Virus record (IMG/VR): IMGVR_UViG_2897328257_000003
Source of the DNA: a virus
Taxonomy: Duplodnaviria > Heunggongvirae > Uroviricota > Caudoviricetes
Strand: one strand, 5' to 3'
DNA length: 64,000 bases
The translations under genes were made by a program, and so were the position numbers. Every line of letters begins with the position of its first letter. Position 1 is the stretch's first letter. Shown here in pieces: positions 9,001-63,074 of the stretch. The notes beneath the pieces were generated by a model. The model searched no databases. It was not told the origin of the DNA and saw only the letters and a list, made by a program, of their open reading frames with translations.

Positions 9001-12000
9001 NNNNNNNNNNNNNNNNNNNNNNNNNNNNNNNNNNNNNNNNNNNNNNNNNNNNNNNNNNNNNNNNNNNNNNNNNNNNNNNNNNNNNNNNNNNNNNNNNNNN
9101 NNNNNNNNNNNNNNNNNNNNNNNNNNNNNNNNNNNNNNNNNNNNNNNNNNNNNNNNNNNNNNNNNNNNNNNNNNNNNNNNNNNNNNNNNNNNNNNNNNNN
9201 NNNNNNNNNNNNNNNNNNNNNNNNNNNNNNNNNNNNNNNNNNNNNNNNNNNNNNNNNNNNNNNNNNNNNNNNNNNNNNNNNNNNNNNNNNNNNNNNNNNN
9301 NNNNNNNNNNNNNNNNNNNNNNNNNNNNNNNNNNNNNNNNNNNNNNNNNNNNNNNNNNNNNNNNNNNNNNNNNNNNNNNNNNNNNNNNNNNNNNNNNNNN
9401 NNNNNNNNNNNNNNNNNNNNNNNNNNNNNNNNNNNNNNNNNNNNNNNNNNNNNNNNNNNNNNNNNNNNNNNNNNNNNNNNNNNNNNNNNNNNNNNNNNNN
9501 NNNNNNNNNNNNNNNNNNNNNNNNNNNNNNNNNNNNNNNNNNNNNNNNNNNNNNNNNNNNNNNNNNNNNNNNNNNNNNNNNNNNNNNNNNNNNNNNNNNN
9601 NNNNNNNNNNNNNNNNNNNNNNNNNNNNNNNNNNNNNNNNNNNNNNNNNNNNNNNNNNNNNNNNNNNNNNNNNNNNNNNNNNNNNNNNNNNNNNNNNNNN
9701 NNNNNNNNNNNNNNNNNNNNNNNNNNNNNNNNNNNNNNNNNNNNNNNNNNNNNNNNNNNNNNNNNNNNNNNNNNNNNNNNNNNNNNNNNNNNNNNNNNNN
9801 NNNNNNNNNNNNNNNNNNNNNNNNNNNNNNNNNNNNNNNNNNNNNNNNNNNNNNNNNNNNNNNNNNNNNNNNNNNNNNNNNNNNNNNNNNNNNNNNNNNN
9901 NNNNNNNNNNNNNNNNNNNNNNNNNNNNNNNNNNNNNNNNNNNNNNNNNNNNNNNNNNNNNNNNNNNNNNNNNNNNNNNNNNNNNNNNNNNNNNNNNNNN
10001 NNNNNNNNNNNNNNNNNNNNNNNNNNNNNNNNNNNNNNNNNNNNNNNNNNNNNNNNNNNNNNNNNNNNNNNNNNNNNNNNNNNNNNNNNNNNNNNNNNNN
10101 NNNNNNNNNNNNNNNNNNNNNNNNNNNNNNNNNNNNNNNNNNNNNNNNNNNNNNNNNNNNNNNNNNNNNNNNNNNNNNNNNNNNNNNNNNNNNNNNNNNN
10201 NNNNNNNNNNNNNNNNNNNNNNNNNNNNNNNNNNNNNNNNNNNNNNNNNNNNNNNNNNNNNNNNNNNNNNNNNNNNNNNNNNNNNNNNNNNNNNNNNNNN
10301 NNNNNNNNNNNNNNNNNNNNNNNNNNNNNNNNNNNNNNNNNNNNNNNNNNNNNNNNNNNNNNNNNNNNNNNNNNNNNNNNNNNNNNNNNNNNNNNNNNNN
10401 NNNNNNNNNNNNNNNNNNNNNNNNNNNNNNNNNNNNNNNNNNNNNNNNNNNNNNNNNNNNNNNNNNNNNNNNNNNNNNNNNNNNNNNNNNNNNNNNNNNN
10501 NNNNNNNNNNNNNNNNNNNNNNNNNNNNNNNNNNNNNNNNNNNNNNNNNNNNNNNNNNNNNNNNNNNNNNNNNNNNNNNNNNNNNNNNNNNNNNNNNNNN
10601 NNNNNNNNNNNNNNNNNNNNNNNNNNNNNNNNNNNNNNNNNNNNNNNNNNNNNNNNNNNNNNNNNNNNNNNNNNNNNNNNNNNNNNNNNNNNNNNNNNNN
10701 NNNNNNNNNNNNNNNNNNNNNNNNNNNNNNNNNNNNNNNNNNNNNNNNNNNNNNNNNNNNNNNNNNNNNNNNNNNNNNNNNNNNNNNNNNNNNNNNNNNN
10801 NNNNNNNNNNNNNNNNNNNNNNNNNNNNNNNNNNNNNNNNNNNNNNNNNNNNNNNNNNNNNNNNNNNNNNNNNNNNNNNNNNNNNNNNNNNNNNNNNNNN
10901 NNNNNNNNNNNNNNNNNNNNNNNNNNNNNNNNNNNNNNNNNNNNNNNNNNNNNNNNNNNNNNNNNNNNNNNNNNNNNNNNNNNNNNNNNNNNNNNNNNNN
11001 NNNNNNNNNNNNNNNNNNNNNNNNNNNNNNNNNNNNNNNNNNNNNNNNNNNNNNNNNNNNNNNNNNNNNNNNNNNNNNNNNNNNNNNNNNNNNNNNNNNN
11101 NNNNNNNNNNNNNNNNNNNNNNNNNNNNNNNNNNNNNNNNNNNNNNNNNNNNNNNNNNNNNNNNNNNNNNNNNNNNNNNNNNNNNNNNNNNNNNNNNNNN
11201 NNNNNNNNNNNNNNNNNNNNNNNNNNNNNNNNNNNNNNNNNNNNNNNNNNNNNNNNNNNNNNNNNNNNNNNNNNNNNNNNNNNNNNNNNNNNNNNNNNNN
11301 NNNNNNNNNNNNNNNNNNNNNNNNNNNNNNNNNNNNNNNNNNNNNNNNNNNNNNNNNNNNNNNNNNNNNNNNNNNNNNNNNNNNNNNNNNNNNNNNNNNN
11401 NNNNNNNNNNNNNNNNNNNNNNNNNNNNNNNNNNNNNNNNNNNNNNNNNNNNNNNNNNNNNNNNNNNNNNNNNNNNNNNNNNNNNNNNNNNNNNNNNNNN
11501 NNNNNNNNNNNNNNNNNNNNNNNNNNNNNNNNNNNNNNNNNNNNNNNNNNNNNNNNNNNNNNNNNNNNNNNNNNNNNNNNNNNNNNNNNNNNNNNNNNNN
11601 NNNNNNNNNNNNNNNNNNNNNNNNNNNNNNNNNNNNNNNNNNNNNNNNNNNNNNNNNNNNNNNNNNNNNNNNNNNNNNNNNNNNNNNNNNNNNNNNNNNN
11701 NNNNNNNNNNNNNNNNNNNNNNNNNNNNNNNNNNNNNNNNNNNNNNNNNNNNNNNNNNNNNNNNNNNNNNNNNNNNNNNNNNNNNNNNNNNNNNNNNNNN
11801 NNNNNNNNNNNNNNNNNNNNNNNNNNNNNNNNNNNNNNNNNNNNNNNNNNNNNNNNNNNNNNNNNNNNNNNNNNNNNNNNNNNNNNNNNNNNNNNNNNNN
11901 NNNNNNNNNNNNNNNNNNNNNNNNNNNNNNNNNNNNNNNNNNNNNNNNNNNNNNNNNNNNNNNNNNNNNNNNNNNNNNNNNNNNNNNNNNNNNNNNNNNN

Positions 12001-15000
12001 NNNNNNNNNNNNNNNNNNNNNNNNNNNNNNNNNNNNNNNNNNNNNNNNNNNNNNNNNNNNNNNNNNNNNNNNNNNNNNNNNNNNNNNNNNNNNNNNNNNN
12101 NNNNNNNNNNNNNNNNNNNNNNNNNNNNNNNNNNNNNNNNNNNNNNNNNNNNNNNNNNNNNNNNNNNNNNNNNNNNNNNNNNNNNNNNNNNNNNNNNNNN
12201 NNNNNNNNNNNNNNNNNNNNNNNNNNNNNNNNNNNNNNNNNNNNNNNNNNNNNNNNNNNNNNNNNNNNNNNNNNNNNNNNNNNNNNNNNNNNNNNNNNNN
12301 NNNNNNNNNNNNNNNNNNNNNNNNNNNNNNNNNNNNNNNNNNNNNNNNNNNNNNNNNNNNNNNNNNNNNNNNNNNNNNNNNNNNNNNNNNNNNNNNNNNN
12401 NNNNNNNNNNNNNNNNNNNNNNNNNNNNNNNNNNNNNNNNNNNNNNNNNNNNNNNNNNNNNNNNNNNNNNNNNNNNNNNNNNNNNNNNNNNNNNNNNNNN
12501 NNNNNNNNNNNNNNNNNNNNNNNNNNNNNNNNNNNNNNNNNNNNNNNNNNNNNNNNNNNNNNNNNNNNNNNNNNNNNNNNNNNNNNNNNNNNNNNNNNNN
12601 NNNNNNNNNNNNNNNNNNNNNNNNNNNNNNNNNNNNNNNNNNNNNNNNNNNNNNNNNNNNNNNNNNNNNNNNNNNNNNNNNNNNNNNNNNNNNNNNNNNN
12701 NNNNNNNNNNNNNNNNNNNNNNNNNNNNNNNNNNNNNNNNNNNNNNNNNNNNNNNNNNNNNNNNNNNNNNNNNNNNNNNNNNNNNNNNNNNNNNNNNNNN
12801 NNNNNNNNNNNNNNNNNNNNNNNNNNNNNNNNNNNNNNNNNNNNNNNNNNNNNNNNNNNNNNNNNNNNNNNNNNNNNNNNNNNNNNNNNNNNNNNNNNNN
12901 NNNNNNNNNNNNNNNNNNNNNNNNNNNNNNNNNNNNNNNNNNNNNNNNNNNNNNNNNNNNNNNNNNNNNNNNNNNNNNNNNNNNNNNNNNNNNNNNNNNN
13001 NNNNNNNNNNNNNNNNNNNNNNNNNNNNNNNNNNNNNNNNNNNNNNNNNNNNNNNNNNNNNNNNNNNNNNNNNNNNNNNNNNNNNNNNNNNNNNNNNNNN
13101 NNNNNNNNNNNNNNNNNNNNNNNNNNNNNNNNNNNNNNNNNNNNNNNNNNNNNNNNNNNNNNNNNNNNNNNNNNNNNNNNNNNNNNNNNNNNNNNNNNNN
13201 NNNNNNNNNNNNNNNNNNNNNNNNNNNNNNNNNNNNNNNNNNNNNNNNNNNNNNNNNNNNNNNNNNNNNNNNNNNNNNNNNNNNNNNNNNNNNNNNNNNN
13301 NNNNNNNNNNNNNNNNNNNNNNNNNNNNNNNNNNNNNNNNNNNNNNNNNNNNNNNNNNNNNNNNNNNNNNNNNNNNNNNNNNNNNNNNNNNNNNNNNNNN
13401 NNNNNNNNNNNNNNNNNNNNNNNNNNNNNNNNNNNNNNNNNNNNNNNNNNNNNNNNNNNNNNNNNNNNNNNNNNNNNNNNNNNNNNNNNNNNNNNNNNNN
13501 NNNNNNNNNNNNNNNNNNNNNNNNNNNNNNNNNNNNNNNNNNNNNNNNNNNNNNNNNNNNNNNNNNNNNNNNNNNNNNNNNNNNNNNNNNNNNNNNNNNN
13601 NNNNNNNNNNNNNNNNNNNNNNNNNNNNNNNNNNNNNNNNNNNNNNNNNNNNNNNNNNNNNNNNNNNNNNNNNNNNNNNNNNNNNNNNNNNNNNNNNNNN
13701 NNNNNNNNNNNNNNNNNNNNNNNNNNNNNNNNNNNNNNNNNNNNNNNNNNNNNNNNNNNNNNNNNNNNNNNNNNNNNNNNNNNNNNNNNNNNNNNNNNNN
13801 NNNNNNNNNNNNNNNNNNNNNNNNNNNNNNNNNNNNNNNNNNNNNNNNNNNNNNNNNNNNNNNNNNNNNNNNNNNNNNNNNNNNNNNNNNNNNNNNNNNN
13901 NNNNNNNNNNNNNNNNNNNNNNNNNNNNNNNNNNNNNNNNNNNNNNNNNNNNNNNNNNNNNNNNNNNNNNNNNNNNNNNNNNNNNNNNNNNNNNNNNNNN
14001 NNNNNNNNNNNNNNNNNNNNNNNNNNNNNNNNNNNNNNNNNNNNNNNNNNNNNNNNNNNNNNNNNNNNNNNNNNNNNNNNNNNNNNNNNNNNNNNNNNNN
14101 NNNNNNNNNNNNNNNNNNNNNNNNNNNNNNNNNNNNNNNNNNNNNNNNNNNNNNNNNNNNNNNNNNNNNNNNNNNNNNNNNNNNNNNNNNNNNNNNNNNN
14201 NNNNNNNNNNNNNNNNNNNNNNNNNNNNNNNNNNNNNNNNNNNNNNNNNNNNNNNNNNNNNNNNNNNNNNNNNNNNNNNNNNNNNNNNNNNNNNNNNNNN
14301 NNNNNNNNNNNNNNNNNNNNNNNNNNNNNNNNNNNNNNNNNNNNNNNNNNNNNNNNNNNNNNNNNNNNNNNNNNNNNNNNNNNNNNNNNNNNNNNNNNNN
14401 NNNNNNNNNNNNNNNNNNNNNNNNNNNNNNNNNNNNNNNNNNNNNNNNNNNNNNNNNNNNNNNNNNNNNNNNNNNNNNNNNNNNNNNNNNNNNNNNNNNN
14501 NNNNNNNNNNNNNNNNNNNNNNNNNNNNNNNNNNNNNNNNNNNNNNNNNNNNNNNNNNNNNNNNNNNNNNNNNNNNNNNNNNNNNNNNNNNNNNNNNNNN
14601 NNNNNNNNNNNNNNNNNNNNNNNNNNNNNNNNNNNNNNNNNNNNNNNNNNNNNNNNNNNNNNNNNNNNNNNNNNNNNNNNNNNNNNNNNNNNNNNNNNNN
14701 NNNNNNNNNNNNNNNNNNNNNNNNNNNNNNNNNNNNNNNNNNNNNNNNNNNNNNNNNNNNNNNNNNNNNNNNNNNNNNNNNNNNNNNNNNNNNNNNNNNN
14801 NNNNNNNNNNNNNNNNNNNNNNNNNNNNNNNNNNNNNNNNNNNNNNNNNNNNNNNNNNNNNNNNNNNNNNNNNNNNNNNNNNNNNNNNNNNNNNNNNNNN
14901 NNNNNNNNNNNNNNNNNNNNNNNNNNNNNNNNNNNNNNNNNNNNNNNNNNNNNNNNNNNNNNNNNNNNNNNNNNNNNNNNNNNNNNNNNNNNNNNNNNNN

Positions 15001-18000
15001 NNNNNNNNNNNNNNNNNNNNNNNNNNNNNNNNNNNNNNNNNNNNNNNNNNNNNNNNNNNNNNNNNNNNNNNNNNNNNNNNNNNNNNNNNNNNNNNNNNNN
15101 NNNNNNNNNNNNNNNNNNNNNNNNNNNNNNNNNNNNNNNNNNNNNNNNNNNNNNNNNNNNNNNNNNNNNNNNNNNNNNNNNNNNNNNNNNNNNNNNNNNN
15201 NNNNNNNNNNNNNNNNNNNNNNNNNNNNNNNNNNNNNNNNNNNNNNNNNNNNNNNNNNNNNNNNNNNNNNNNNNNNNNNNNNNNNNNNNNNNNNNNNNNN
15301 NNNNNNNNNNNNNNNNNNNNNNNNNNNNNNNNNNNNNNNNNNNNNNNNNNNNNNNNNNNNNNNNNNNNNNNNNNNNNNNNNNNNNNNNNNNNNNNNNNNN
15401 NNNNNNNNNNNNNNNNNNNNNNNNNNNNNNNNNNNNNNNNNNNNNNNNNNNNNNNNNNNNNNNNNNNNNNNNNNNNNNNNNNNNNNNNNNNNNNNNNNNN
15501 NNNNNNNNNNNNNNNNNNNNNNNNNNNNNNNNNNNNNNNNNNNNNNNNNNNNNNNNNNNNNNNNNNNNNNNNNNNNNNNNNNNNNNNNNNNNNNNNNNNN
15601 NNNNNNNNNNNNNNNNNNNNNNNNNNNNNNNNNNNNNNNNNNNNNNNNNNNNNNNNNNNNNNNNNNNNNNNNNNNNNNNNNNNNNNNNNNNNNNNNNNNN
15701 NNNNNNNNNNNNNNNNNNNNNNNNNNNNNNNNNNNNNNNNNNNNNNNNNNNNNNNNNNNNNNNNNNNNNNNNNNNNNNNNNNNNNNNNNNNNNNNNNNNN
15801 NNNNNNNNNNNNNNNNNNNNNNNNNNNNNNNNNNNNNNNNNNNNNNNNNNNNNNNNNNNNNNNNNNNNNNNNNNNNNNNNNNNNNNNNNNNNNNNNNNNN
15901 NNNNNNNNNNNNNNNNNNNNNNNNNNNNNNNNNNNNNNNNNNNNNNNNNNNNNNNNNNNNNNNNNNNNNNNNNNNNNNNNNNNNNNNNNNNNNNNNNNNN
16001 NNNNNNNNNNNNNNNNNNNNNNNNNNNNNNNNNNNNNNNNNNNNNNNNNNNNNNNNNNNNNNNNNNNNNNNNNNNNNNNNNNNNNNNNNNNNNNNNNNNN
16101 NNNNNNNNNNNNNNNNNNNNNNNNNNNNNNNNNNNNNNNNNNNNNNNNNNNNNNNNNNNNNNNNNNNNNNNNNNNNNNNNNNNNNNNNNNNNNNNNNNNN
16201 NNNNNNNNNNNNNNNNNNNNNNNNNNNNNNNNNNNNNNNNNNNNNNNNNNNNNNNNNNNNNNNNNNNNNNNNNNNNNNNNNNNNNNNNNNNNNNNNNNNN
16301 NNNNNNNNNNNNNNNNNNNNNNNNNNNNNNNNNNNNNNNNNNNNNNNNNNNNNNNNNNNNNNNNNNNNNNNNNNNNNNNNNNNNNNNNNNNNNNNNNNNN
16401 NNNNNNNNNNNNNNNNNNNNNNNNNNNNNNNNNNNNNNNNNNNNNNNNNNNNNNNNNNNNNNNNNNNNNNNNNNNNNNNNNNNNNNNNNNNNNNNNNNNN
16501 NNNNNNNNNNNNNNNNNNNNNNNNNNNNNNNNNNNNNNNNNNNNNNNNNNNNNNNNNNNNNNNNNNNNNNNNNNNNNNNNNNNNNNNNNNNNNNNNNNNN
16601 NNNNNNNNNNNNNNNNNNNNNNNNNNNNNNNNNNNNNNNNNNNNNNNNNNNNNNNNNNNNNNNNNNNNNNNNNNNNNNNNNNNNNNNNNNNNNNNNNNNN
16701 NNNNNNNNNNNNNNNNNNNNNNNNNNNNNNNNNNNNNNNNNNNNNNNNNNNNNNNNNNNNNNNNNNNNNNNNNNNNNNNNNNNNNNNNNNNNNNNNNNNN
16801 NNNNNNNNNNNNNNNNNNNNNNNNNNNNNNNNNNNNNNNNNNNNNNNNNNNNNNNNNNNNNNNNNNNNNNNNNNNNNNNNNNNNNNNNNNNNNNNNNNNN
16901 NNNNNNNNNNNNNNNNNNNNNNNNNNNNNNNNNNNNNNNNNNNNNNNNNNNNNNNNNNNNNNNNNNNNNNNNNNNNNNNNNNNNNNNNNNNNNNNNNNNN
17001 NNNNNNNNNNNNNNNNNNNNNNNNNNNNNNNNNNNNNNNNNNNNNNNNNNNNNNNNNNNNNNNNNNNNNNNNNNNNNNNNNNNNNNNNNNNNNNNNNNNN
17101 NNNNNNNNNNNNNNNNNNNNNNNNNNNNNNNNNNNNNNNNNNNNNNNNNNNNNNNNNNNNNNNNNNNNNNNNNNNNNNNNNNNNNNNNNNNNNNNNNNNN
17201 NNNNNNNNNNNNNNNNNNNNNNNNNNNNNNNNNNNNNNNNNNNNNNNNNNNNNNNNNNNNNNNNNNNNNNNNNNNNNNNNNNNNNNNNNNNNNNNNNNNN
17301 NNNNNNNNNNNNNNNNNNNNNNNNNNNNNNNNNNNNNNNNNNNNNNNNNNNNNNNNNNNNNNNNNNNNNNNNNNNNNNNNNNNNNNNNNNNNNNNNNNNN
17401 NNNNNNNNNNNNNNNNNNNNNNNNNNNNNNNNNNNNNNNNNNNNNNNNNNNNNNNNNNNNNNNNNNNNNNNNNNNNNNNNNNNNNNNNNNNNNNNNNNNN
17501 NNNNNNNNNNNNNNNNNNNNNNNNNNNNNNNNNNNNNNNNNNNNNNNNNNNNNNNNNNNNNNNNNNNNNNNNNNNNNNNNNNNNNNNNNNNNNNNNNNNN
17601 NNNNNNNNNNNNNNNNNNNNNNNNNNNNNNNNNNNNNNNNNNNNNNNNNNNNNNNNNNNNNNNNNNNNNNNNNNNNNNNNNNNNNNNNNNNNNNNNNNNN
17701 NNNNNNNNNNNNNNNNNNNNNNNNNNNNNNNNNNNNNNNNNNNNNNNNNNNNNNNNNNNNNNNNNNNNNNNNNNNNNNNNNNNNNNNNNNNNNNNNNNNN
17801 NNNNNNNNNNNNNNNNNNNNNNNNNNNNNNNNNNNNNNNNNNNNNNNNNNNNNNNNNNNNNNNNNNNNNNNNNNNNNNNNNNNNNNNNNNNNNNNNNNNN
17901 NNNNNNNNNNNNNNNNNNNNNNNNNNNNNNNNNNNNNNNNNNNNNNNNNNNNNNNNNNNNNNNNNNNNNNNNNNNNNNNNNNNNNNNNNNNNNNNNNNNN

Positions 18001-55737: not shown

Positions 55738-56019
55738 ATGACAGAAGCCGAAATACTGCGATTAATCCGCCGCGTCTCTGGAATCAGCCAGCAGGCTGAC
55801 GAACAGACCACGCAGCCGGACAGCGTGACAGCCGAAAATTATGCGCGTGTTGTTGCTGAGGTGATGCGCCGTGATGGTATCCAGCTTAATGATGCGGATA
55901 TGCGCGACATACGGATCCGCGTTCTGGAAATGCTGGCCTACAATCGCCGCGTTGAACTGTATCGGGAGAAGGAGAAAATCACGTACCACTGGAAGAAGCC
56001 GGAGCGGTTACGGCGGTAA
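55738..56019 (+). CDS. Conserved hypothetical 93-aa protein at the right end of both islands
   Basis: Close homolog at 63330-63611 (MTEAE.LRLIRRV.GISQQ.DEQ.TQPDSVTAENYARVVAEVMRRDGI.LN..DMR.IR.RVLE.LAY.RRVE.YREKEKITYHWKKPERLRR). Confidence 0.6.
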   Translation: MTEAEILRLIRRVSGISQQADEQTTQPDSVTAENYARVVAEVMRRDGIQLNDADMRDIRIRVLEMLAYNRRVELYREKEKITYHWKKPERLRR

Positions 56020-56433
56020 CTTGTTGATTAAAAGGCGGCTCAATTCTGAGCTGGGTAGCTGACGGCGGTAACTGTTTTATATTCCCGATAGCGCAAAAAT
56101 GCGCGGTCGGGCAGAATGACCACCACCTCAATCGTGACGGAGAGTGACAACCAGTGACACACCGTGACAAAAAGACGGTTTAACCGTTCATTAAAAATCG
56201 ACGTGATTTTGTGCTATCAGGATGACGTGGCCAACGTCATTTTTTAGCGAAAAATTCTGATTAAGGTCACTGGCTGAATGGTCATAATGACCACGCAGAC
56301 CATCGAGGCAACCATAGCGATCATCGTTACGGTTGGAGCTTTTCCGCCATTGGTGGAAAAGGTGCACATCTGGATCATCATTACGGTGATCAAGGGTATG
56401 TAAAACCCACCAGCCTGATTAAATGTTAACCGG
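56020..56433. repeat. Island-1 right-end non-coding region with repeated motifs (cggcggtaact x2, GTGACA repeats, palindrome tggtcataatgacca); probable attR/arm-site region
   Basis: Motifs partly shared with the island-2 right end (63612-63820); contains a 38-codon hydrophobic ORF at 56287-56403. Confidence 0.4.
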
Positions 56434-56444: not shown

Positions 56445-56559
56445 TGATTATACTGGAATCCAGTTGAGTGTTTATCACTCAATGCAAACGAGGCTGAAAA
56501 GGATTGCCGTCCTTTCGCAGCCTCTGACCACCAACGATAGCGAAAGTATCGAGGTAGCT
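56445..56559 (+). promoter_or_regulatory. Conserved control region (copy 2) with palindrome TTGAGTG-N5-CACTCAA (56464-56482)
   Basis: Near-identical to 44836-44952. Confidence 0.5.
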
Positions 56560-56763
56560 ATGAGAAATCATATCACACACCCGCAAGGGCGGGACTCGCA
56601 CAACCTGAATAAATTCACCTGGCGTTTTATCGCCCTGAGCACGGCACAACCGCGCGTGATTACCATTGAGGCCACCAGCGAACAGGAAGCACGCCTGCAA
56701 TCCCCGGCTGGCTGCGTGATGGTATTCGCTGCCCGTATTCGTCAGGGGGGGTGCCATGCCTGA
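56560..56763 (+). CDS. Hypothetical small protein (homolog of 44953-45153)
   Basis: Same SD and start context; N-terminus conserved, C-terminus divergent. Confidence 0.5.
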   Translation: MRNHITHPQGRDSHNLNKFTWRFIALSTAQPRVITIEATSEQEARLQSPAGCVMVFAARIRQGGCHA

Positions 56764-57076
56764 CATGACCAATTACCAGTACCTGATTAATCCGCATTTT
56801 AACTGTGAGCATGATATTGCTAAAAAGGTTTATTCCGCTGCGGATGGGGCTACTGACAATATATCAATGGCTGTTTCGTCAATTGGTAGCCTGATGTGGT
56901 ATGCGTCAGAAAATGAGGAATATGACGAAAAGGCCATGCGCATTGACATGGGGAATATTGGCTTGTTACTGGCAATGCTTGGGCAGTTTGATATTTCGTT
57001 ACGGTGCACCATTGAAAATGCCACAGATGCATTAAATGCCATAAAGAAAGCGAATACTGATTCAAATCGGGGATAA
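56756..57076 (+). CDS. Hypothetical protein (106 aa), island-2-specific variable-slot gene
   Basis: Six-frame ORF in the same slot as island-1 ORFs 45146-45754 but unrelated in sequence. Confidence 0.45.
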   Translation: MPDMTNYQYLINPHFNCEHDIAKKVYSAADGATDNISMAVSSIGSLMWYASENEEYDEKAMRIDMGNIGLLLAMLGQFDISLRCTIENATDALNAIKKANTDSNRG

Positions 57077-57082
57077 ATAATC

Positions 57083-57382
57083 ATGAGAACATATTTATCT
57101 GGCTTGACTGCCAGCGGTTATGCACACCCCAAAATTATCCCCGGCGCTATTTATCTGGATAAGAACGGTAACAGAGTAACGGTAAAAGAACTGATGTTTG
57201 ACCGTGTGTATTTTATCCGTGATGGCTATTCATTTCTTAGTTCGCTGAACGTGGAGATCTTTATTAGCAGATTCAGGCGGGAAATCCCGCTTTCCAGAAA
57301 TAACCATGTGTCATGTATGGATGTTGATAAAAAACTACAGGAACTAAAAAACATGATTGCCGCGTGGAGAGAGCAGAAATGA
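57083..57382 (+). CDS. Hypothetical protein with GLTASG motif (99 aa)
   Basis: Counterpart of 45760-46059; stop overlaps primase start. Confidence 0.5.
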   Translation: MRTYLSGLTASGYAHPKIIPGAIYLDKNGNRVTVKELMFDRVYFIRDGYSFLSSLNVEIFISRFRREIPLSRNNHVSCMDVDKKLQELKNMIAAWREQK

Positions 57383-59196
57383 AAAAAGCGCCAAATTTAA
57401 AACACCAGCCACGTGACAAAATGATGGAAGTCATCATTTTTGCGGGTAGTGATGCGTGGGCACATGCGAAGCAATGGCAGGAACAGGACGGGCGACTGGC
57501 TGGCGACAGCGTGCCTCCTGTCTGGCTTGGAGAGCAACAACTTGCCGAACTGGACAACCTGCAAATCGTACCGGACGGACGCTATCGCGTGCGTCTCTAT
57601 CAGGCGGGGTTATTGCGTCCGGGGCTTGTTAATACCATCGGGCAGAAACTGGCAGCGGCAGGTGTCAGGGATGCTGATTATTACCCTGAAGGAATGCACA
57701 GCCAGAAACGGGAGAACTGGCGCGAATATCTGGAACGTGAACGGGCAGAGCAGGCGGAAAAGAAAAAGGTAGTTGAACTGCCTGTAAAGAAAAAAGAGCG
57801 GGTAAAAGACGATAACGCTTCATCACTGGCGCTTAACCAGATGGGAGCAAGTCAACGCGGCGAAGTTCTCCTGGCACATTATGGCGGTGAACTGGCGATT
57901 CATGCTGACTCTGACACTGTTCACTATTACAACGGCGTTGTATGGGAGCCAGTACAGGATAAAGAATTACAGCGAGCTATGGCACAGATTTTCATTGATG
58001 CGGAGATCAGCTATTCGCAGAACGCCATTAAATCGGCGGTCGATACCATGAAGTTAAGTTTGCCTGTAATGGGGAATACAGCCCGTAACCTGATTGGATT
58101 CAGTAACGGTGTTTTTGATACCCGGACAGGCGATTTTCGGGAGCATAACAAAAACGACTGGTTGTTAATTGCCAGTGAATTACCTTTCAGCCCACCAGCA
58201 GAGGGGGAAACGCTGGCAACACATGCGCCGAATTTCTGGAAGTGGTTACGCCGTTCGGTGGCTGAGAATGACCGCAAGGCGGATCGCGTACTGGCTGCAT
58301 TATTCATGGTGCTGGCGAACCGGTACGACTGGCAGTTATTCATTGAGGTAACAGGTCCAGGGGGAAGTGGTAAAAGCGTGATGGCGGAGATTTGCACCAT
58401 GCTGGCGGGTAAGGCCAACACGGTATCGGCAAGCATGAAGGCGCTGGAAGATGCCAGGGAACGCGCGTTAGTGGTTGGCTTTTCGCTGATTATCATGCCG
58501 GATATGACCCGTTACGCTGGTGATGGCGCAGGAATTAAGGCCATTACAGGCGGTGACAAGGTGGCAATCGACCCGAAGCATAAAGCCCCCTACTCAACAC
58601 GCATTCAGGCGGTAGTGTTGGCGGTGAACAATAACGCCATGTCATTCAGTGACCGCAGCGGGGGGATTTCACGTCGTCGGGTGATATTCAATTTTTCGGA
58701 GGTTGTACCGGAAAACGAACGCGACCCCATGCTGGCAGAAAAAATAGAAGGAGAGCTGGCGGTTGTGATTCGCCACCTGCTTACTCGTTTTTCTGACCAG
58801 GACGAAGCTAAACGCCTGCTGTATGAGCAGCAGAAATCAGAAGAAGCTCTGGTGATAAAACGCGAGGGCGATTCGCTGGTGGACTTCTGCGGCTATCTCA
58901 TGTCGTCGGTAATGTGTGATGGTCTGTTAGTGGGTAATGCCGAAATTATTCCGTTCAGTCCGCGCAGGTATCTTTATCACGCCTATCTGGCATATATGAG
59001 GGCACACGGATTCGGTAAACCTGTAACACTGACGCGCTTCGGTAAAGATATGCCGGGGGCAATGGCGGAATATGGCAGGGAGTATATGAAACGGAAAACG
59101 AAGCACGGTTTGCGTTCAAATGTGACCCTGACAGAGGATTCAGAAGACTGGATGCCATCATGTGCATCGGTCACAAATGACGATGGAAAAAATTAA
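57379..59196 (+). CDS. P4-family phage/plasmid primase / replication initiator (island-2 allele)
   Basis: About 605 aa; Walker A FIEVTGPGGSGKSV; N-terminus and C-terminal domain related to island-1 primase, middle divergent; start refined to MKKAPNLK; six-frame ORF starts at 57364. Confidence 0.85.
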   Translation: MKKAPNLKHQPRDKMMEVIIFAGSDAWAHAKQWQEQDGRLAGDSVPPVWLGEQQLAELDNLQIVPDGRYRVRLYQAGLLRPGLVNTIGQKLAAAGVRDADYYPEGMHSQKRENWREYLERERAEQAEKKKVVELPVKKKERVKDDNASSLALNQMGASQRGEVLLAHYGGELAIHADSDTVHYYNGVVWEPVQDKELQRAMAQIFIDAEISYSQNAIKSAVDTMKLSLPVMGNTARNLIGFSNGVFDTRTGDFREHNKNDWLLIASELPFSPPAEGETLATHAPNFWKWLRRSVAENDRKADRVLAALFMVLANRYDWQLFIEVTGPGGSGKSVMAEICTMLAGKANTVSASMKALEDARERALVVGFSLIIMPDMTRYAGDGAGIKAITGGDKVAIDPKHKAPYSTRIQAVVLAVNNNAMSFSDRSGGISRRRVIFNFSEVVPENERDPMLAEKIEGELAVVIRHLLTRFSDQDEAKRLLYEQQKSEEALVIKREGDSLVDFCGYLMSSVMCDGLLVGNAEIIPFSPRRYLYHAYLAYMRAHGFGKPVTLTRFGKDMPGAMAEYGREYMKRKTKHGLRSNVTLTEDSEDWMPSCASVTNDDGKN

Positions 59197-59460
59197 ACTT
59201 ATGGAATAACTGTTCACCACTGTTCAGCCTGCAATAAATGTCTTTTATATCAGTATATTATAGGGTGAACAGTTATTTATGAACTGTTCACCAAACTATT
59301 CACTGTTCACCTTTTTGATTCTTTATTGAGCTTTAAGGGTGAACAGTGGTGAACAGTTGGTGAATAGTTTTTGTGAAACTGTTCACCCCTTAACATCATG
59401 AATAAAAAGGGAAAATTGCAAAAGGTGAACAGGTGAAGGGTTGAAATGCAAAAATTTTAT
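59197..59460. repeat. Iteron array, putative island-2 replication origin (GTGAACAG-type)
   Basis: At least 10 copies of TGTTCACC/GGTGAACAG in both orientations (aactgttcaccactgttcag, gggtgaacagtt, gaactgttcaccaaactattcactgttcacc, gggtgaacagtggtgaacagttggtgaatag, ggtgaacaggtgaagg) right after the primase gene. Confidence 0.65.
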
Positions 59461-59483
59461 TTTATTGCTGTGAGGTAAAGCCT

Positions 59484-59729
59484 GTGACAACGAAGCACGC
59501 CAAAAAACCACAATCTCACGCCCTTGATTTGACAGAACACTGGCTGAGGGTGGCGATAAAAATCATCGACCGCAACGCCGGGGAAGGATACGCGAAGGAA
59601 CATCCCGACCTGATAAGCGCATTCATGACCACAGCAGCGGCAAACTTTGCCACGCTGACAGAACGGGAGATTGCCGAAGCGGAACAGGTAACAACCATCA
59701 ACGTTAAAACCGGAGAGGGGGCAGTATGA
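59484..59729 (+). CDS. Hypothetical protein conserved in both islands (homolog of 48091-48405)
   Basis: GTG start with SD gaggt; C-terminal region near-identical to island-1 copy. Confidence 0.55.
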   Translation: MTTKHAKKPQSHALDLTEHWLRVAIKIIDRNAGEGYAKEHPDLISAFMTTAAANFATLTEREIAEAEQVTTINVKTGEGAV

Positions 59730-60136
59730 CGGCACAGATAGCCGCTTACGGGCGGCTGGTGGACGACCCGCAGGTAAAACAGACCAGCAAGGGCACACCA
59801 ATGACGCTGGCTCGTATGGCGGTATCGCTGCCATGCAGCCAGGCACAGGACGGACAGGCGACGTTATGGCTGTCGGTCATCGCATTTGGCAAACAGTCCG
59901 ACTTCCTGGCTAAACATCAAAAAGGCGACGTTGCCAGCGTATCCGGCACGATGCAGGTAAGCCAGTGGACCGGACAGAACGGGGAGACGCGTCAGGGTTA
60001 TCAGGTTATTGCAGACAGCGTAATCAGTGCCCGTGCGGCACGTCCTGGCGGGAACAGACGCAAAACCACAGGCGCACAGGGTAATCAGCCACCAGCGGGA
60101 GACGATGATCCCTACGGTGATGATATTCCGTTCTGA
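59726..60136 (+). CDS. ssb: Single-stranded DNA-binding protein (SSB-like, C-terminal DDIPF)
   Basis: Near-identical to island-1 SSB; ends ...AGDDDPYGDDIPF. Confidence 0.75.
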   Translation: MTAQIAAYGRLVDDPQVKQTSKGTPMTLARMAVSLPCSQAQDGQATLWLSVIAFGKQSDFLAKHQKGDVASVSGTMQVSQWTGQNGETRQGYQVIADSVISARAARPGGNRRKTTGAQGNQPPAGDDDPYGDDIPF

Positions 60137-60146
60137 GGGGGTGACG

Positions 60147-60395
60147 ATGGTACATGACCGCATAGCGGAAGAACTCGAAGCGAAAGGATTTTACCGGAGG
60201 GCGGCGGCGCGATGGGGTGAAGTCATGATGCTGGTGGAGACAGACAAGGAACGGCATCACATCACGATGCGACGGCTGGAATGTTCCAGGAAGGCACAGA
60301 GGCCACCGGAGCCGCCAACGGAGAACTATGCAGACCTGAGAAATGCAGTAAATCGCACTTACGCAGACATGGGGCTGAGCAAATTAGCAGAGTAG
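60147..60395 (+). CDS. PerC/Pch-family-like transcriptional regulator (putative)
   Basis: 82 aa; AEELEAKGFYRRAAARWGEVM core shared with island-1 copy. Confidence 0.5.
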   Translation: MVHDRIAEELEAKGFYRRAAARWGEVMMLVETDKERHHITMRRLECSRKAQRPPEPPTENYADLRNAVNRTYADMGLSKLAE

Positions 60396-60416
60396 GAATA
60401 CCAGAACCACACCACA

Positions 60417-60490
60417 CAGCCGGAGCAATCCGGCTTTTTTGCGCCCAAAAAAAGCCCGATAAGGTCAGAGGTGGCTTATCGGGCTTTTGC
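60417..60490 (+). terminator. Tandem rho-independent terminators
   Basis: agccggagcaatccggc + T6, then aagcccgataag-N11-cttatcgggctt + TTTT (12-bp stem). Confidence 0.65.
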
Positions 60491-60649
60491 ATATGAGGCT
60501 TTTTGGTGCACTGACACACATGATCGGGATAATCATTTCATAATTTGCAACACAACTCAATATCATTGCACAAAATGCAATCATGATTATAATCATAACT
60601 GGATGAACATACAGTTGTGGTTTTTTAAGTCAAAGAGGAATTTCTTACT

Positions 60650-60856
60650 ATGGCTGAAGAGAAAAAAGGCGGTGTTTCGGTGTACATAAGCCCCGACATC
60701 GTGAAGGCGCTCAAGGAACGCCACCAGCAGAACGTAAAAGCAGGCATTGCGGCAGGACTTGATCCGCTGGCGATGGTTGAGCCGTCAACAGGCTGGCAGG
60801 TACGCGCCTATTTACGCGCGGCGCTGGGTATGAATCAGGTTCACGGGGGTGAATAA
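60650..60856 (+). CDS. Hypothetical 68-aa protein upstream of the gpE-like capsid gene
   Basis: SD aaagagg; stop overlaps the capsid gene start; no recognisable family. Confidence 0.45.
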   Translation: MAEEKKGGVSVYISPDIVKALKERHQQNVKAGIAAGLDPLAMVEPSTGWQVRAYLRAALGMNQVHGGE

Positions 60857-61911
60857 TGACAGGTAAAGCAACAGCACTTACCACTAATCAGCTTTTCACG
60901 TACCTGAATCGCGGGGATATTGCGGAATTTAAATTCAGTCCGCTGTTTACGACGCTGTTTTTCCCGAACGTGGCGACATTCAGCACCCAAAACATCATGC
61001 TGGATACCCTGGACATTGAAGAAGTCACCATGTCGGCGTTTTGTTCGCCTATGGTTGGCAGCCAGGTACAGCGCGATAAAGGGTACGAAACCAGCACAAT
61101 TAAACCTGGCTACATGAAGCCAAAGCACGAAATCGATCCAACGAAAACCATCATGCGCATGGCTGGAGAAGATCCAGCACAGCTTAACGACCCTACCTAC
61201 CGACGTATGCGCCTGATTACTGGCAACATGCGCCGCCAGGTAAACGCCATTAAAGCGCGCGTGGAATGGCTGGCGGTGAATGCGATAACGACCGGAAAAA
61301 ACATTATTGAGGGCGAAGGCATAGAACGCTATGAAATAGACTGGAAAATACCGGAAAACTGCATCATAGAGCAGGCCAAGGGTAAAAAATGGTCCGAGCA
61401 GGATAAAGAGATGCACGACCCAATCTATGACATCGAGCTTTATGCTGATCAGGCTGGTTGCCCCGCAAACGTCATGATTATGGGCGCTGAGGTATGGCGC
61501 ACGCTACGCAGCTTTAAAAAATTCCGTGAGCTGTACGATCTTTCCCGTGGTTCAGAATCCGCCGCAGAACTGGCCTGTAAAAACCTGGGCGAAGTGGTGA
61601 GCTTTAAAGGCTATCTGGGCGATATTGCCCTTATCGTCTATTCCGGCAAATACGCTGACAGCGACGGCACCGAAAAATATTTCCTTGAGCCTGATTTACT
61701 GGTCCTGGGTAACACCAACAATAAAGGCCTGGTGGCCTATGGTGCGATTATGGATCAGGAAGCGGTAAGAACGGGCGCAACGCAAAACATGTACTACCCG
61801 AAAAACTGGATTGAGGACGGCGATCCGGCGATTGAGTACGTGCAGACACACAGCGCACCGCAGCCGGTACCGGCAGATATTCGCAAATTTGTTACCGTCA
61901 AAATTGGTTAA
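60856..61911 (+). CDS. Major capsid protein, lambda gpE-like
   Basis: 351 aa; colinear similarity to lambda gpE as remembered (island KFSPLFTTLFF / PGYMKPKHEI / YPKNWIEDGDPA versus lambda KFDPLFLRLFF / PGYVKPKHEV / YPKNWVTTGDPA). Confidence 0.85.
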   Translation: MTGKATALTTNQLFTYLNRGDIAEFKFSPLFTTLFFPNVATFSTQNIMLDTLDIEEVTMSAFCSPMVGSQVQRDKGYETSTIKPGYMKPKHEIDPTKTIMRMAGEDPAQLNDPTYRRMRLITGNMRRQVNAIKARVEWLAVNAITTGKNIIEGEGIERYEIDWKIPENCIIEQAKGKKWSEQDKEMHDPIYDIELYADQAGCPANVMIMGAEVWRTLRSFKKFRELYDLSRGSESAAELACKNLGEVVSFKGYLGDIALIVYSGKYADSDGTEKYFLEPDLLVLGNTNNKGLVAYGAIMDQEAVRTGATQNMYYPKNWIEDGDPAIEYVQTHSAPQPVPADIRKFVTVKIG

Positions 61912-61922
61912 CGGGGGATTCT

Positions 61923-62258
61923 ATGGACACTCCATACATTGAGTTATTCGCAGGCAGTCAGCAGGTCGCCACGACGCTGGTACATTTTGCCGCTGATGCT
62001 GGCGTTATTCAGGAATTTACCCCGCTGATGCTGGCGGACAATGGCGAGTTTAAGCCGTGGGATGGTCAGGAATCTGGCAAGGCTGTTTATCTGACTTCGT
62101 ACCCCGTGGACACGTCGACGCAGAAATCAGCACAGTGTTACAAGACGGGGATATTTAATATCGCTGCCGTAAACTGGCCTGAGAGCGCCGACACTGACGC
62201 GAAAAAATGCGCTGCCTTTGCGGGGTCTGGCGTATCCGTTCAGCCGCTGGCGCGATAA
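61923..62258 (+). CDS. Head decoration protein, lambda gpD-like
   Basis: 111 aa; similar to lambda gpD as remembered (island FTPLMLADNGEFKPWDG...YKTGIFN...NWPESADTDAKKCAAFAGSGVSV versus lambda MTPLMLDTSSRKLVAWDG...YKSGTFR...[24 protein letters not shown]). Confidence 0.8.
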   Translation: MDTPYIELFAGSQQVATTLVHFAADAGVIQEFTPLMLADNGEFKPWDGQESGKAVYLTSYPVDTSTQKSAQCYKTGIFNIAAVNWPESADTDAKKCAAFAGSGVSVQPLAR

Positions 62259-62330
62259 GCAGGGGGAACGATGGCAGAACCCCGGGCGATGACGGCGACA
62301 TCGATCGCATACTGAAAACCATCTGAGACA

Positions 62331-62355
62331 GGCCGGAGAAATCCGGCTTTTTTTA
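62331..62355 (+). terminator. Rho-independent terminator (ggccggagaaatccggc + T7) just before cos
   Basis: Third copy of the gccgga/tccggc hairpin, followed by ttttttt. Confidence 0.6.
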
Positions 62356-62356
62356 C

Positions 62357-62430
62357 GGGTCCTTTCCGGCATATGGACCCGTTACGGGGCGGCGACCTCG
62401 CGGATTTTCGCTATTTATGAGCCTTTTCGG
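62357..62430 (+). promoter_or_regulatory. Lambda-type cos site 1 (cosQ-cosN conserved; predicted 12-nt cohesive end GGGCGGCGACCT at 62387-62398; divergent cosB)
   Basis: acgggtcctttccgg...gttacg|gggcggcgacctcgcggattttcgctatttatga matches the lambda right-end/left-end junction as remembered; downstream cosB region differs from lambda. Confidence 0.75.
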
Positions 62431-62531
62431 GTTTGTGGTGGTGGTTTTGTTGTTCGCTCTATCTCTATGAATAAAAAGGGAAAGATAAAACCAACACACC
62501 AACCTGAAACCTTAACTAAGTGGGTATATTG

Positions 62532-63074
62532 ATGAAATCGCACCTGATGAACAAAAAAAACATGGCGAAAAGCTGCCGTGTAAGTGCGACAGCGTTCGAC
62601 AAGTGGGGAGTGACACCCGTTGAACGTAAAGGCCGTGAGGCGTTTTATGATGTTGCCAGCGTGATAGACAATAGGGTTAACAATGCAATTAGCCAGCTTA
62701 CAAACGACAAAGTCGAGATTGATGATGATGAACTCTTACGAGTCAGGATCAGATTACTGACAGCACAGGCGGAGGCGCAGGAACTTAAAAACGAGCGCGA
62801 TCGCGGTGACGTGATTGATACAGAGTTTTGCATGTACGCGCTTTCAAAACTGGCAAGTCAGATTTCTTCAATCATGGACAGCCTCCCGCTTACTATGCAA
62901 AGGAACTTCCCACAGATGCCCCCCGCTATGCTGCATGGGCTTAAGAGGGAAGTAGTTAAAGCCTGTAATGCCAGTGCCAGAGTTGCCGACAACCTCCCAC
63001 AGATACTTGCTGATTACCTGAACGAAACAACCGGAAACGTACCGGAAAAGTTGCTACAGAAGAAAGGCGAGTAA
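62532..63074 (+). CDS. Terminase small subunit, lambda Nu1-like (divergent N-terminal DNA-binding region, conserved C-terminal region)
   Basis: About 180 aa; C-terminal half resembles lambda Nu1 (LTAQAEAQELKNERDRGDVIDTEFCMYALSKLASQISSIMDSLPLTMQRNFPQ); N-terminal HTH region divergent; lies directly downstream of cos1 as in lambda. Start could be 62520, 62532 or 62547. Confidence 0.78.
   Translation: MKSHLMNKKNMAKSCRVSATAFDKWGVTPVERKGREAFYDVASVIDNRVNNAISQLTNDKVEIDDDELLRVRIRLLTAQAEAQELKNERDRGDVIDTEFCMYALSKLASQISSIMDSLPLTMQRNFPQMPPAMLHGLKREVVKACNASARVADNLPQILADYLNETTGNVPEKLLQKKGE

Follow-up and report, generated by a model that had tools for sequence, protein, structure and literature searches.

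A box-hairpin array follows an orphan 93-amino-acid gene at the right end of phage-inducible chromosomal islands of Escherichia coli

What is the repeat- and palindrome-rich DNA that follows the same gene, coding for a 93-amino-acid protein, in each of two islands on one 64,000-nucleotide stretch of E. coli DNA (IMG/VR record IMGVR_UViG_2897328257_000003; hereafter the window, meaning the whole stretch)? A preliminary description of the first copy, at positions 55,738 to 56,433, had offered integrase arm sites or attR, operators of a second regulator, or a small RNA locus as possible answers. By their gene content the two islands are phage-inducible chromosomal islands (PICIs), which are among the commonest mobile elements of E. 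coli, and we know of no operon end that has been described for the PICIs of Gram-negative hosts. In the PICI literature searched, no description was found of the function of the 93-amino-acid gene or of the repeats downstream of it; the region beyond the packaging module is regarded there as variable and expected to carry immune systems (bioRxiv 10.1101/2025.02.11.637232), and the PICI 3′ end is known as a variable or accessory region (PMC11364771). We report a widely conserved right-end array for which no prior description was found.

When 15 different right ends were compared side by side, the motifs picked out in the preliminary description proved to be fragments of a single repeat unit, and such units are legible in every right end examined. 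Each unit begins with a box of about 16 nt (consensus CGGCG(CG)GTAAC-Y-N-R-Y-TGAT-W-T), the core of which, TAAC-Y-N-R-Y-TGAT-W, is the reverse complement of the integration host factor (IHF) consensus WATCAR-N4-TTR. A hairpin with a stem of 5-12 bp and an A/T loop follows 8-10 nt 3′ of the box; its stem sequence is free, with complementarity kept (outer stems include CCTCAAtTTGAGG, CCCCCAtTGGGGG, CCACAGaCTGTGG, GCGCAAaaTTGCGC and CGACCTCCTCAAtTTGAGGAGGTCG), and its centre is mostly CA(A)-W-(T)TG. One to seven co-oriented units, starting at the stop codon of the 93-amino-acid gene, make up the array, and further hairpins extend up to a conserved att-proximal block. Seven units occupy 430 bp in EDL933 (EcCIEDL933), while Island 1 of the window has two, the box of the second being degenerate, and Island 2 has three, two of them within direct repeats. 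The individual motifs were recovered as first described: GGCGGTAACT occurs four times (56012, 56064, 63604 and 63737), GCKCAAAAWTGCGC three times (56091, 63632 and 63765) and GCTGAAT-RR-TCATWATGA-YY-AC three times (56273, 63648 and 63781), all on the + strand and at the right ends only, where 100 shuffles gave 0.00-0.01 expected matches, and CCCCCATTGGGGG was located at 63719-63731. The direct repeats of Island 2, stated to be roughly 80 bp long, are likewise present, and their size is to be corrected to 66 nt at 89% identity (63604-63669 and 63737-63802), followed after a 10-nt indel by 24 nt more at 96%, with a period of 133 bp.

The fit of the box to the IHF consensus was followed in 67 distinct right ends, obtained by scanning IMG/VR for the conserved end of the gene and adding the loci collected earlier. 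In 59 of the 67, the first box and the stop codon of the 93-amino-acid gene overlap. Over the 450 nt that follow the stop codon, the - strand carries 143 matches to the strict IHF consensus (4.74 per kb) and the + strand two (0.07 per kb), and 89 of the 106 distinct units contain a strict match, with a moderate A/T-rich flank. Box positions left unconstrained by the search pattern also fit the consensus (Y in 41/43, T in 36/43 and W in 41/43). In EDL933, six strict matches fall within 400 bp, whereas the flanks have approximately 0.1 per kb on each strand.

The hairpin is supported by a separate set of observations. Of 42 units, 34 have a perfect stem of 5 bp or more (shuffles: mean 6.9; maximum 15), and with one mismatch allowed a hairpin is found in 89/105 units, 63 of these 89 beginning 8-10 nt past the box, with 43 different stems among them. 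In two centred alignments the covariation scores were 0.364 vs 0.118 and 0.317 vs 0.106, with 0/500 shuffles reaching the observed values and slid controls collapsing, only the pair variety and the outer positions being unbiased in this comparison. Internal stem mismatches are G.T in eight cases and A.C in one, and the conserved 15-bp palindrome TGGTCATaATGACCA varies in the series GG/CC, GA/TT, AA/TT; because of this G.T-dominated mismatch pattern and this series of variants, the evidence points, if weakly, to pairing in the + strand. The arrays fold with z-scores of about -2 and the distal segments with -5 to -8, as compared to +0.6 for coding controls. The segment 63814-64000 gave z = -6.2 on the + strand and -8.4 on the - strand, and L002 12535-12800 gave z = -7.0 (dinucleotide shuffles), L001 and L002 being the loci from which the complete right ends of Island 1 and Island 2, respectively, were read (L002 coordinates plus 51279 give those of the window). 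The segment 63814-64000, continuing in L002 12535-12800, also holds three long imperfect inverted repeats with arms of 19, 33 and 26 nt. Rfam 15 returned no match at the gathering score, the only sub-threshold hit being the manA RNA (18 bits vs 55), and promoter and terminator scans of L001 and L002 gave counts no higher than those of shuffles. The suggestion of a small or structured RNA locus is as such borne out in part: compensatory hairpins, G.T mismatches and folding beyond that of shuffles agree with a structured RNA, whereas chance-level promoters and the lack of an Rfam match speak against a small RNA locus.

The array is restricted in its distribution. Matches to the EDL933 array were found in 1315 of 5426 complete E. 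coli genomes, at a median of one place each, which is the same distribution as that of the 93-amino-acid gene (1567/5426 genomes; median one copy, up to six per genome) and unlike that of a genome-wide repeat. Among 50,697 phage records only 36-nt, chance-level matches to the array occurred, in three records, and 72,556 plasmid records gave only a few matches. As no tblastn match to the 93-amino-acid protein was found in the same 50,697 phage records and the array has only these chance-level matches there, a phage origin of the module was rejected. In 39 loci with at least 2.5 kb of downstream sequence, strict units all fall within ~400 nt past the stop codon and never recur further on, and the idea that the units bracket cargo cassettes, which had arisen from locus L016, was also rejected. 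Integron attC sites, P4 crr iterons and Tus/Ter were also considered, and were dropped since their defining sequences or partner genes are absent.

The box-hairpin arrangement persists down to 43% protein identity in the neighboring gene (L023), and the same array is found behind different packaging modules. The array of L005, a capsid-forming island at the phoQ site, matches the Island 2-type array of L002 in tqsA, and L009, L012 and L013 share one array at phoQ, ydgV and thiM, respectively. Arrays do not track Rep type either. Conservation of the motifs in related islands, on which the preliminary description had staked its proposal, is clearly present. The box-hairpin array is real, widely conserved, specific to satellites and common to PICI classes, and it is distinct from the att arm and independent of the att site.

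The gene at the head of the array is shared by both islands, as had been stated, with copies 87% identical as protein and 88% as DNA. Because a ribosome-binding site is legible upstream of both copies and in the protein core non-synonymous differences are less frequent than synonymous ones, the open reading frame (ORF) is, on this sequence evidence, a real gene. It is present in the model element EcCIEDL933, and in all loci it is the final co-oriented PICI gene, its upstream neighbor varying: TerL in capsid-forming PICIs; a Nu1-family gene, in some cases separated from it by a cos, in cos-type PICIs, among them a helper-embedded one; and yet other genes in L016 and L021. The helper-embedded case (L017; NZ_CP098192, 3534756-3543037) is an island with the 93-amino-acid gene inside a prophage portal gene, with TGTATTGC as its doubled motif, in line with the description of such islands in PMC10111431. 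A contig scan for relatives outside E. coli yielded only one Shigella locus, and distant alleles were reached via protein-encoding contigs and IMG/VR. In 14 alleles, down to 43% protein identity, the codons CGG CGG TAA C are invariant, as is TGG AAG AAG CCG near the gene end. A synonymous freeze of the 3′ end of the gene was rejected, the synonymous difference fraction there being ~0.2, the same as in the rest of the gene.

The encoded protein is helical and ends in a basic C-terminal tail, WKKPERLRR. It has no Pfam match, and its PHROG assignment (phrog_1561) is annotated as 'unknown function'. No relative was found in the PDB, with best E-values of 0.85 for the sequence profile and 0.29 for the fold (Foldseek; AlphaFold2 model of three helices, pLDDT 67), and when 1.8 billion representatives were searched exhaustively with HMMER, no more than 37 clusters at 50% identity emerged, many of which consist of fragments, with no informative relative. 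Assigning a function by homology was abandoned, as all of these approaches were uninformative. The 93-amino-acid protein is, as judged from these searches, an orphan confined to satellites. In one database protein, P0136, the C-terminal half of the 93-amino-acid protein is fused to the peptide QLDHETTETTRSLGSKSN, a match to the right-end ORF of Island 2 at 63818-64000; this fusion suggests that some islands are in tandem or have recombined, with an incomplete gene copy lying behind a right end. In EcCIEDL933, mutation of the packaging-module 'hypothetical gene 1792' cut transfer severely without abolishing it, this gene being either the 93-amino-acid gene or a 60-amino-acid ORF between HNH and terS (bioRxiv 10.1101/2022.09.08.507074).

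We tentatively favor a reading of the module as the structured 3′ end of the PICI late operon, consisting of an orphan last gene and a box-hairpin array that resembles the RIP/BIME elements of the host chromosome; this is a plausible answer, if short of a probable one. The 93-amino-acid gene would be the last gene of a long rightward operon dependent on AlpA, and the array would be transcribed as its 3′ untranslated end. The hairpins would act in the + strand RNA, where they may protect, process or stop the transcript, and they would insulate the DNA downstream, which is that of host genes in the integrated island and attP and int in the circular form. The boxes are predicted IHF-type DNA-bending sites, and the repeats may supply microhomology for tandem duplications, such as the direct repeats of Island 2, and for mosaic right ends. 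We infer from sequence the transcription of the array, its binding of IHF, its role as RNA and any role of the 93-amino-acid protein.

The elements to which the array is likened, known as RIP, RIB or BIME-1 (repetitive IHF-binding palindromic elements), consist in E. coli of an IHF site flanked by repetitive extragenic palindromic (REP) sequences and lie at the 3′ ends of transcription units; REP and BIME elements occur in hundreds of chromosomal copies. They share with the array an IHF-consensus box combined with palindromic hairpins after the last gene of an operon, tandem and mosaic copies, and compensatory pairing in which G.U is tolerated on the transcribed strand. Unlike them, the array occurs about once per genome and only beside the 93-amino-acid gene, so that a RIP-type genome-wide dispersal is not seen; furthermore, its stems are short (5-12 bp) and highly variable, and its first box overlaps a stop codon. 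The 3′ hairpins of the lambda sib/tI type, which lie across att and retroregulate int, provide a functional analogy only. In both cases structured RNA would lie beside att, with a linkage to int that differs between the integrated and the excised state. However, in the circular PICI int lies downstream of the array and not upstream, and no RNase III-type long stem was identified in the array.

Several points weigh against the proposed operon end. The predicted IHF binding is based on a degenerate consensus of 13 bp, and the search pattern for the units itself required TAA...TGA. The likeness to RIP/BIME elements appears to be architectural only, with no REP or BIME sequence match claimed and REP sequence similarity not formally scored. 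The sequences entered into the covariation analysis were preselected for at least four loop-adjacent pairs, which inflates the inner pairing; the count of G.T vs A.C mismatches is small (8 vs 1) and comes from units related by descent; and hairpins in + strand single-stranded DNA would yield signals identical to those of RNA. No unit passes the + strand terminator scan, a T-run being absent, and one passes on the - strand in L002. Finally, the 93-amino-acid protein is without a Pfam, PDB or Foldseek relative, and its model reaches a pLDDT of only 67.

A more far-reaching proposal, which we regard as doubtful, is that the array and the 93-amino-acid protein form a satellite-specific cis/trans system, a nucleoprotein or ribonucleoprotein complex with IHF that controls a step of the life cycle across capsid-forming and cos/Rpp PICIs. 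The steps concerned may be the stopping of antiterminated late transcription before attP and int, the timing of Int after circularisation, or the marking of DNA for packaging.

In another reading, which is unlikely, the protein and the array would be a cognate pair: the 93-amino-acid protein would bind the box-hairpin units, as DNA or RNA, and build a nucleoprotein array at the right end, possibly with IHF, in the service of packaging, excision control or transcription control. Gene and array are coupled in every locus examined, with the first box on the stop codon in most of the right ends, and both are restricted to satellites with near-identical distributions among the genomes; the protein ends in a basic tail, and this tail and the box are the most conserved parts of the module. 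The transfer defect caused by mutation of 'hypothetical gene 1792' in EcCIEDL933 would also fit, if that gene is the 93-amino-acid one and not the 60-amino-acid ORF. On the other hand, no DNA- or RNA-binding fold is recognizable in the protein, the conservation of the last tail codons may merely reflect the overlapping box, and freely varying stems speak against sequence-specific recognition of the hairpins.

The array could also be read from the opposite strand, as an insulator against leftward transcription: in the - strand RNA its hairpins would be stacked weak intrinsic terminators that stop transcripts from the host flank or right-end cargo and shield the late operon from antisense. On that strand the A/T-rich part of the box follows each hairpin as a U-rich sequence, one unit passes the - strand terminator scan (AGCGCAATTTTGCGCT TTGCTTT), and host genes at two att sites read toward the island (phoPQ and the tqsA 5′ fragment). 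We hold this to be improbable, as the scan was passed by that one unit in L002 and by none in L001, which is no more than in shuffles; the G.T bias on the + strand would amount to A.C mismatches in a - strand RNA, and the conservation of the box beyond the U-rich stretch would be left unexplained.

It is quite improbable that the units are merely scars of recombination, that is, gene ends and terminators duplicated by illegitimate or homologous exchange and left as functionless marks of module junctions beside the accessory hotspot at the PICI 3′ end. The internal boxes do resemble the gene's own 3′ end, CGGCG(CG)GTAACT, right ends are mosaic and contain tandem duplications, and the variable or accessory nature of this region is known from the two studies cited at the outset. 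Neutral scars would decay, however, yet the IHF-consensus positions are fixed while others drift, the 43 stems are kept by compensatory changes, the spacing from box to hairpin is fixed and the arrangement persists in the most divergent locus noted above.

There remains the attachment site. The preliminary description had considered the flagged motifs as integrase arm sites or attR, and these proved confined to the two right ends, with none beside int at the left end. The att cores, which were deduced from direct repeats and interrupted host genes, place the flagged array about 250-650 bp from the crossover core, the array spanning +0 to +400 past the stop codon and the putative core lying at about +660 to +700; arm sites would be sought within ~150 bp of the core. 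Nor does the array covary with the integrase or att site, as identical or near-identical arrays occur at phoQ, tqsA/ydgV and thiM.

A different sequence has the properties of an arm site. The doubled motif GGTGTAGTyAmT x2 (GGTGTAGTTAAT x2) is present on both att arms (L001: 2140-2163 and 16880-16903; L002: 1040-1063 and 12937-12960), at a distance from the core of approximately 90 bp in the right arm and 140 bp in the left, and occurs once in the window, at 41887-41906. It varies by att site, being GGTGTAGTCACT at tqsA, TGTGGTCAGT x2 at thiM (L013) and TGTATTGC x2 in the helper-embedded island, and further doubled motifs occupy the equivalent place in L023 (ATGTGTATAG x2), L018 (AGCTAyACG x2) and L022 (GGTATCCTA x2). 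The integrase carries an Arm-DNA-bind_3 domain (Pfam), and from its sequence and placement the doubled motif is likely the true arm-type Int site. In complete genomes, the right end runs from the Chi-bearing block through ~70 bp, similar to the DNA upstream of int, in which the doubled motif lies, past an IHF consensus (TTAAATCAAT...) to the presumed core. This conserved consensus, TTAAATCAATnnnnTTR (L001 16923-16935; L002 12971-12983), is oriented opposite to the boxes of the array and stands where an att-arm IHF site is expected. In the right ends read, a conserved Chi copy, CCACCAGC, is situated ~170-270 bp ahead of the doubled arm motif.

A doubled motif, tgTGTATTGCa x2, has been described in the attP of helper-embedded PICIs at 81 and 132 bp from the core; proposed to bind the arm domains of Int and reported absent from other PICIs, it is the sole element so far proposed for the att arms of Gram-negative PICIs (Tommasini, Mageeney and Williams 2023, PMC10111431). 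The doubled motif found here is analogous to it, with both arms occupied at similar distances; contrary to that statement, several PICI types have, at the corresponding place, doubled motifs that differ in sequence. The flagged array is an element separate from this doubled motif and lies further inside the island. An identity of the flagged motifs with integrase arm-type sites or another part of attR is hardly tenable: although they lie at the integrase-distal end, which circularisation joins to the int side, and IHF-like sites are typical of att arms, they are missing from the left arm, too far from the core (whereas the doubled motif has the geometry of the helper-embedded PICIs), indifferent to the att site with which the doubled motif covaries, and separate from the oppositely oriented IHF consensus between that motif and the core.

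The features of the module and its surroundings are collected in Table 1. The four GTGAC repeats are retained in L015 and L018, though their spacers vary; they are in helical phase and look like a candidate site for a filament- or multimer-binding protein. Either these repeats or the 15-bp palindrome may be candidate operators of a second regulator, beside which it is to be noted that the palindrome TGGTCATaATGACCA varies in the fashion of a hairpin, from GG/CC to GA/TT to AA/TT. The 38-codon ORF pointed out at 56287-56403 exists (41 codons if read from 56278), but its protein is not conserved: its counterparts in related right ends are 8, 16, 33, 38 and 42 amino acids long, and the changes relative to EDL933 are mostly non-synonymous and compensatory for a hairpin (CCGCCA...TGGTGG to ACCCCA...TGGGGG). 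On these grounds a type I toxin or small hydrophobic protein was rejected. Similarly, the 52-60-amino-acid ORF annotated in some genomes has no conserved start, a TGA standing just upstream in L019 and no in-frame ATG being present in L022. Chi (GCTGGTGG) occurs 14 times in the ~14.6 kb of Island 1 (L001 ~2000-17000), 9/14 in the + orientation; at ~1 per kb the whole island is Chi-rich, and an enrichment specific to the right end was rejected.

Table 1. Features of the two right-end modules and their surroundings, in positions of the window
Feature	Position	Strand	Remarks
Doubled motif GGTGTAGTTAATGGTGTAGT	41887..41906	+	Just upstream of int; right-arm partner past the N gap
93-amino-acid gene, copy 1	55738..56019	+	Last gene of the capsid-forming PICI, 13 nt past terL; 'hypothetical protein' in complete genomes and EcCIEDL933
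Box-hairpin unit 1	56012..56051	+	Box TAACTTGTTGATT 56017-56029 opens with stop TAA; hairpin GCTCAattcTGAGC 56038-56051
Box-hairpin unit 2	56064..56104	+	Degenerate box TAACTGTTTTATA 56069-56081; hairpin GCGCAaaaaTGCGC 56091-56104
Four GTGAC direct repeats, exact 10-bp spacing	56134..56168	+	Optional module; absent from Island 2 and EDL933
Terminator-like hairpin ATGACGTggccaACGTCAT, then T6	56223..56246	+	Read by eye; terminator scan did not list it
GCTGAAT and palindrome TGGTCATaATGACCA	56273..56294	+	Variants GG/CC, GA/TT, AA/TT keep symmetry
38-codon hydrophobic ORF, judged non-coding	56287..56403	+	Overlaps hairpin CTTTTCCGCCAtTGGTGGAAAAG 56339-56361
Chi (GCTGGTGG)	56407..56414	-	Within conserved block CCCACCAGCCTGATTAA, just ahead of the contig break
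11-N run, contig join	56435-56445	.	Island 1 truncated here, within hairpin AACCGGAAAAAAATCCGGT
cosN of cos1, lambda-type	62387-62398	+	Perfect lambda cosN
cosN of cos2, lambda-type, inverted	63254-63265	-	cosQ-like GGAAGGACCCG adjoins the 93-amino-acid gene start
93-amino-acid gene, copy 2	63330..63611	+	Directly past inverted cos2 of Island 2
Direct repeat 1	63604..63669	+	Box TAACTCACTGAGA 63609-63621 on stop codon; imperfect hairpin AGCTCAAAATTGCGCT 63631-63646; GCTGAAT-palindrome 63648-63669
Box-hairpin unit, strict IHF consensus	63696..63732	+	Box TAAACCGTTGATT 63696-63708; hairpin TCCCCCAtTGGGGGA 63718-63732
Direct repeat 2	63737..63802	+	Box TAACTGGTTGAAC 63742-63754; hairpin AGCGCAAAATTGCGCT 63764-63779; GCTGAAT-palindrome 63781-63802
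Hairpin-rich, strongly structured segment	63814..64000	+	Runs past the window; overlaps the 52-60-amino-acid ORF with inconsistent start

The window itself is E. coli DNA in which contigs of a draft genome are joined at a run of 11 N, and, as a consequence of this join, the genomic adjacency of the two islands is not demonstrated. The contig break coincides with the onset of sequence shared between the islands, the att-proximal block on one side and the int-to-DUF4222 region on the other. The statement that both islands end with the 93-amino-acid gene and its motifs is not one that the window can bear out, as Island 1 is cut by the N run and Island 2 by the end of the window; neither true right end lies inside it, and in complete genomes the host flank begins only after another ~250 bp in Island 1 and ~300 bp in Island 2.

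Island 1 (~41.9-56.4 kb of the window) is, over the region described here, 100% identical to the roxA/phoQ island of complete genomes. It is laid out in the order int, AlpA-type helix-turn-helix regulator, primase, HK97-type capsid, protease, portal, head closure, connector, HNH, TerS (P27 family), TerL and the 93-amino-acid gene. Annotation of identical islands and Pfam matches show the gene content of a PICI, with an inward-facing int, an AlpA-type regulator, a primase or rep gene and no tail or lysis genes, and predict the island's own HK97-type capsid, portal, protease, HNH, TerS and TerL, as in the capsid-forming class. EcCIEDL933, described as the prototype of that class (Alqurainy et al. 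2022/2023; bioRxiv 10.1101/2022.09.08.507074), is alike in its roxA/phoQ site, its gene order and its last gene, at 95% DNA identity, and Island 1 is by these predicted features an EcCIEDL933-like capsid-forming PICI.

Only the distal part of Island 2 (56446-64000) is contained in the window, the island sitting in tqsA in complete genomes. Its genes encode a D5-type primase, a lambda E-type capsid protein, a D-type decoration protein and a Nu1-family protein (Pfam), which identify it, at the level of sequence, as a lambda-cos PICI with a Nu1-family gene. It may be likened to EcCICFT073 (a cos PICI; Fillol-Salom et al. 2018, 2019; PMC6739421) in its lambda-type major capsid, decoration and Nu1-family genes and in having cos1 and cos2. 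The two perfect lambda cosN sites (GGGCGGCGACCT) bracket the Nu1-family gene (62520-63074) in inverted orientation, with a cosQ-like GGGTCCTTTCC near each. The stretch beside cos2 also appears to resemble the lambda sequence immediately right of cosN. L017 and L018 leave no room for a cos2 between the Nu1-family gene and the 93-amino-acid gene.

The module is present in 29% of complete E. coli genomes. The right end of these islands is now divided into a likely att arm, comprising the doubled motif, an IHF site and the core, and a conserved array that is independent of att. The signature ...WKKPERLRR* followed by the box marks PICI right ends and could sharpen the calling of satellite boundaries, and EcCIEDL933 offers precise targets in its one orphan gene and its seven units, of which six fit the strict IHF consensus. 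If the array merely stabilises mRNA in the manner of RIP elements, it would be a modest addition to what is known; should it instead govern transcription across attP or bind the orphan protein, it would represent a new regulatory layer across satellite classes.

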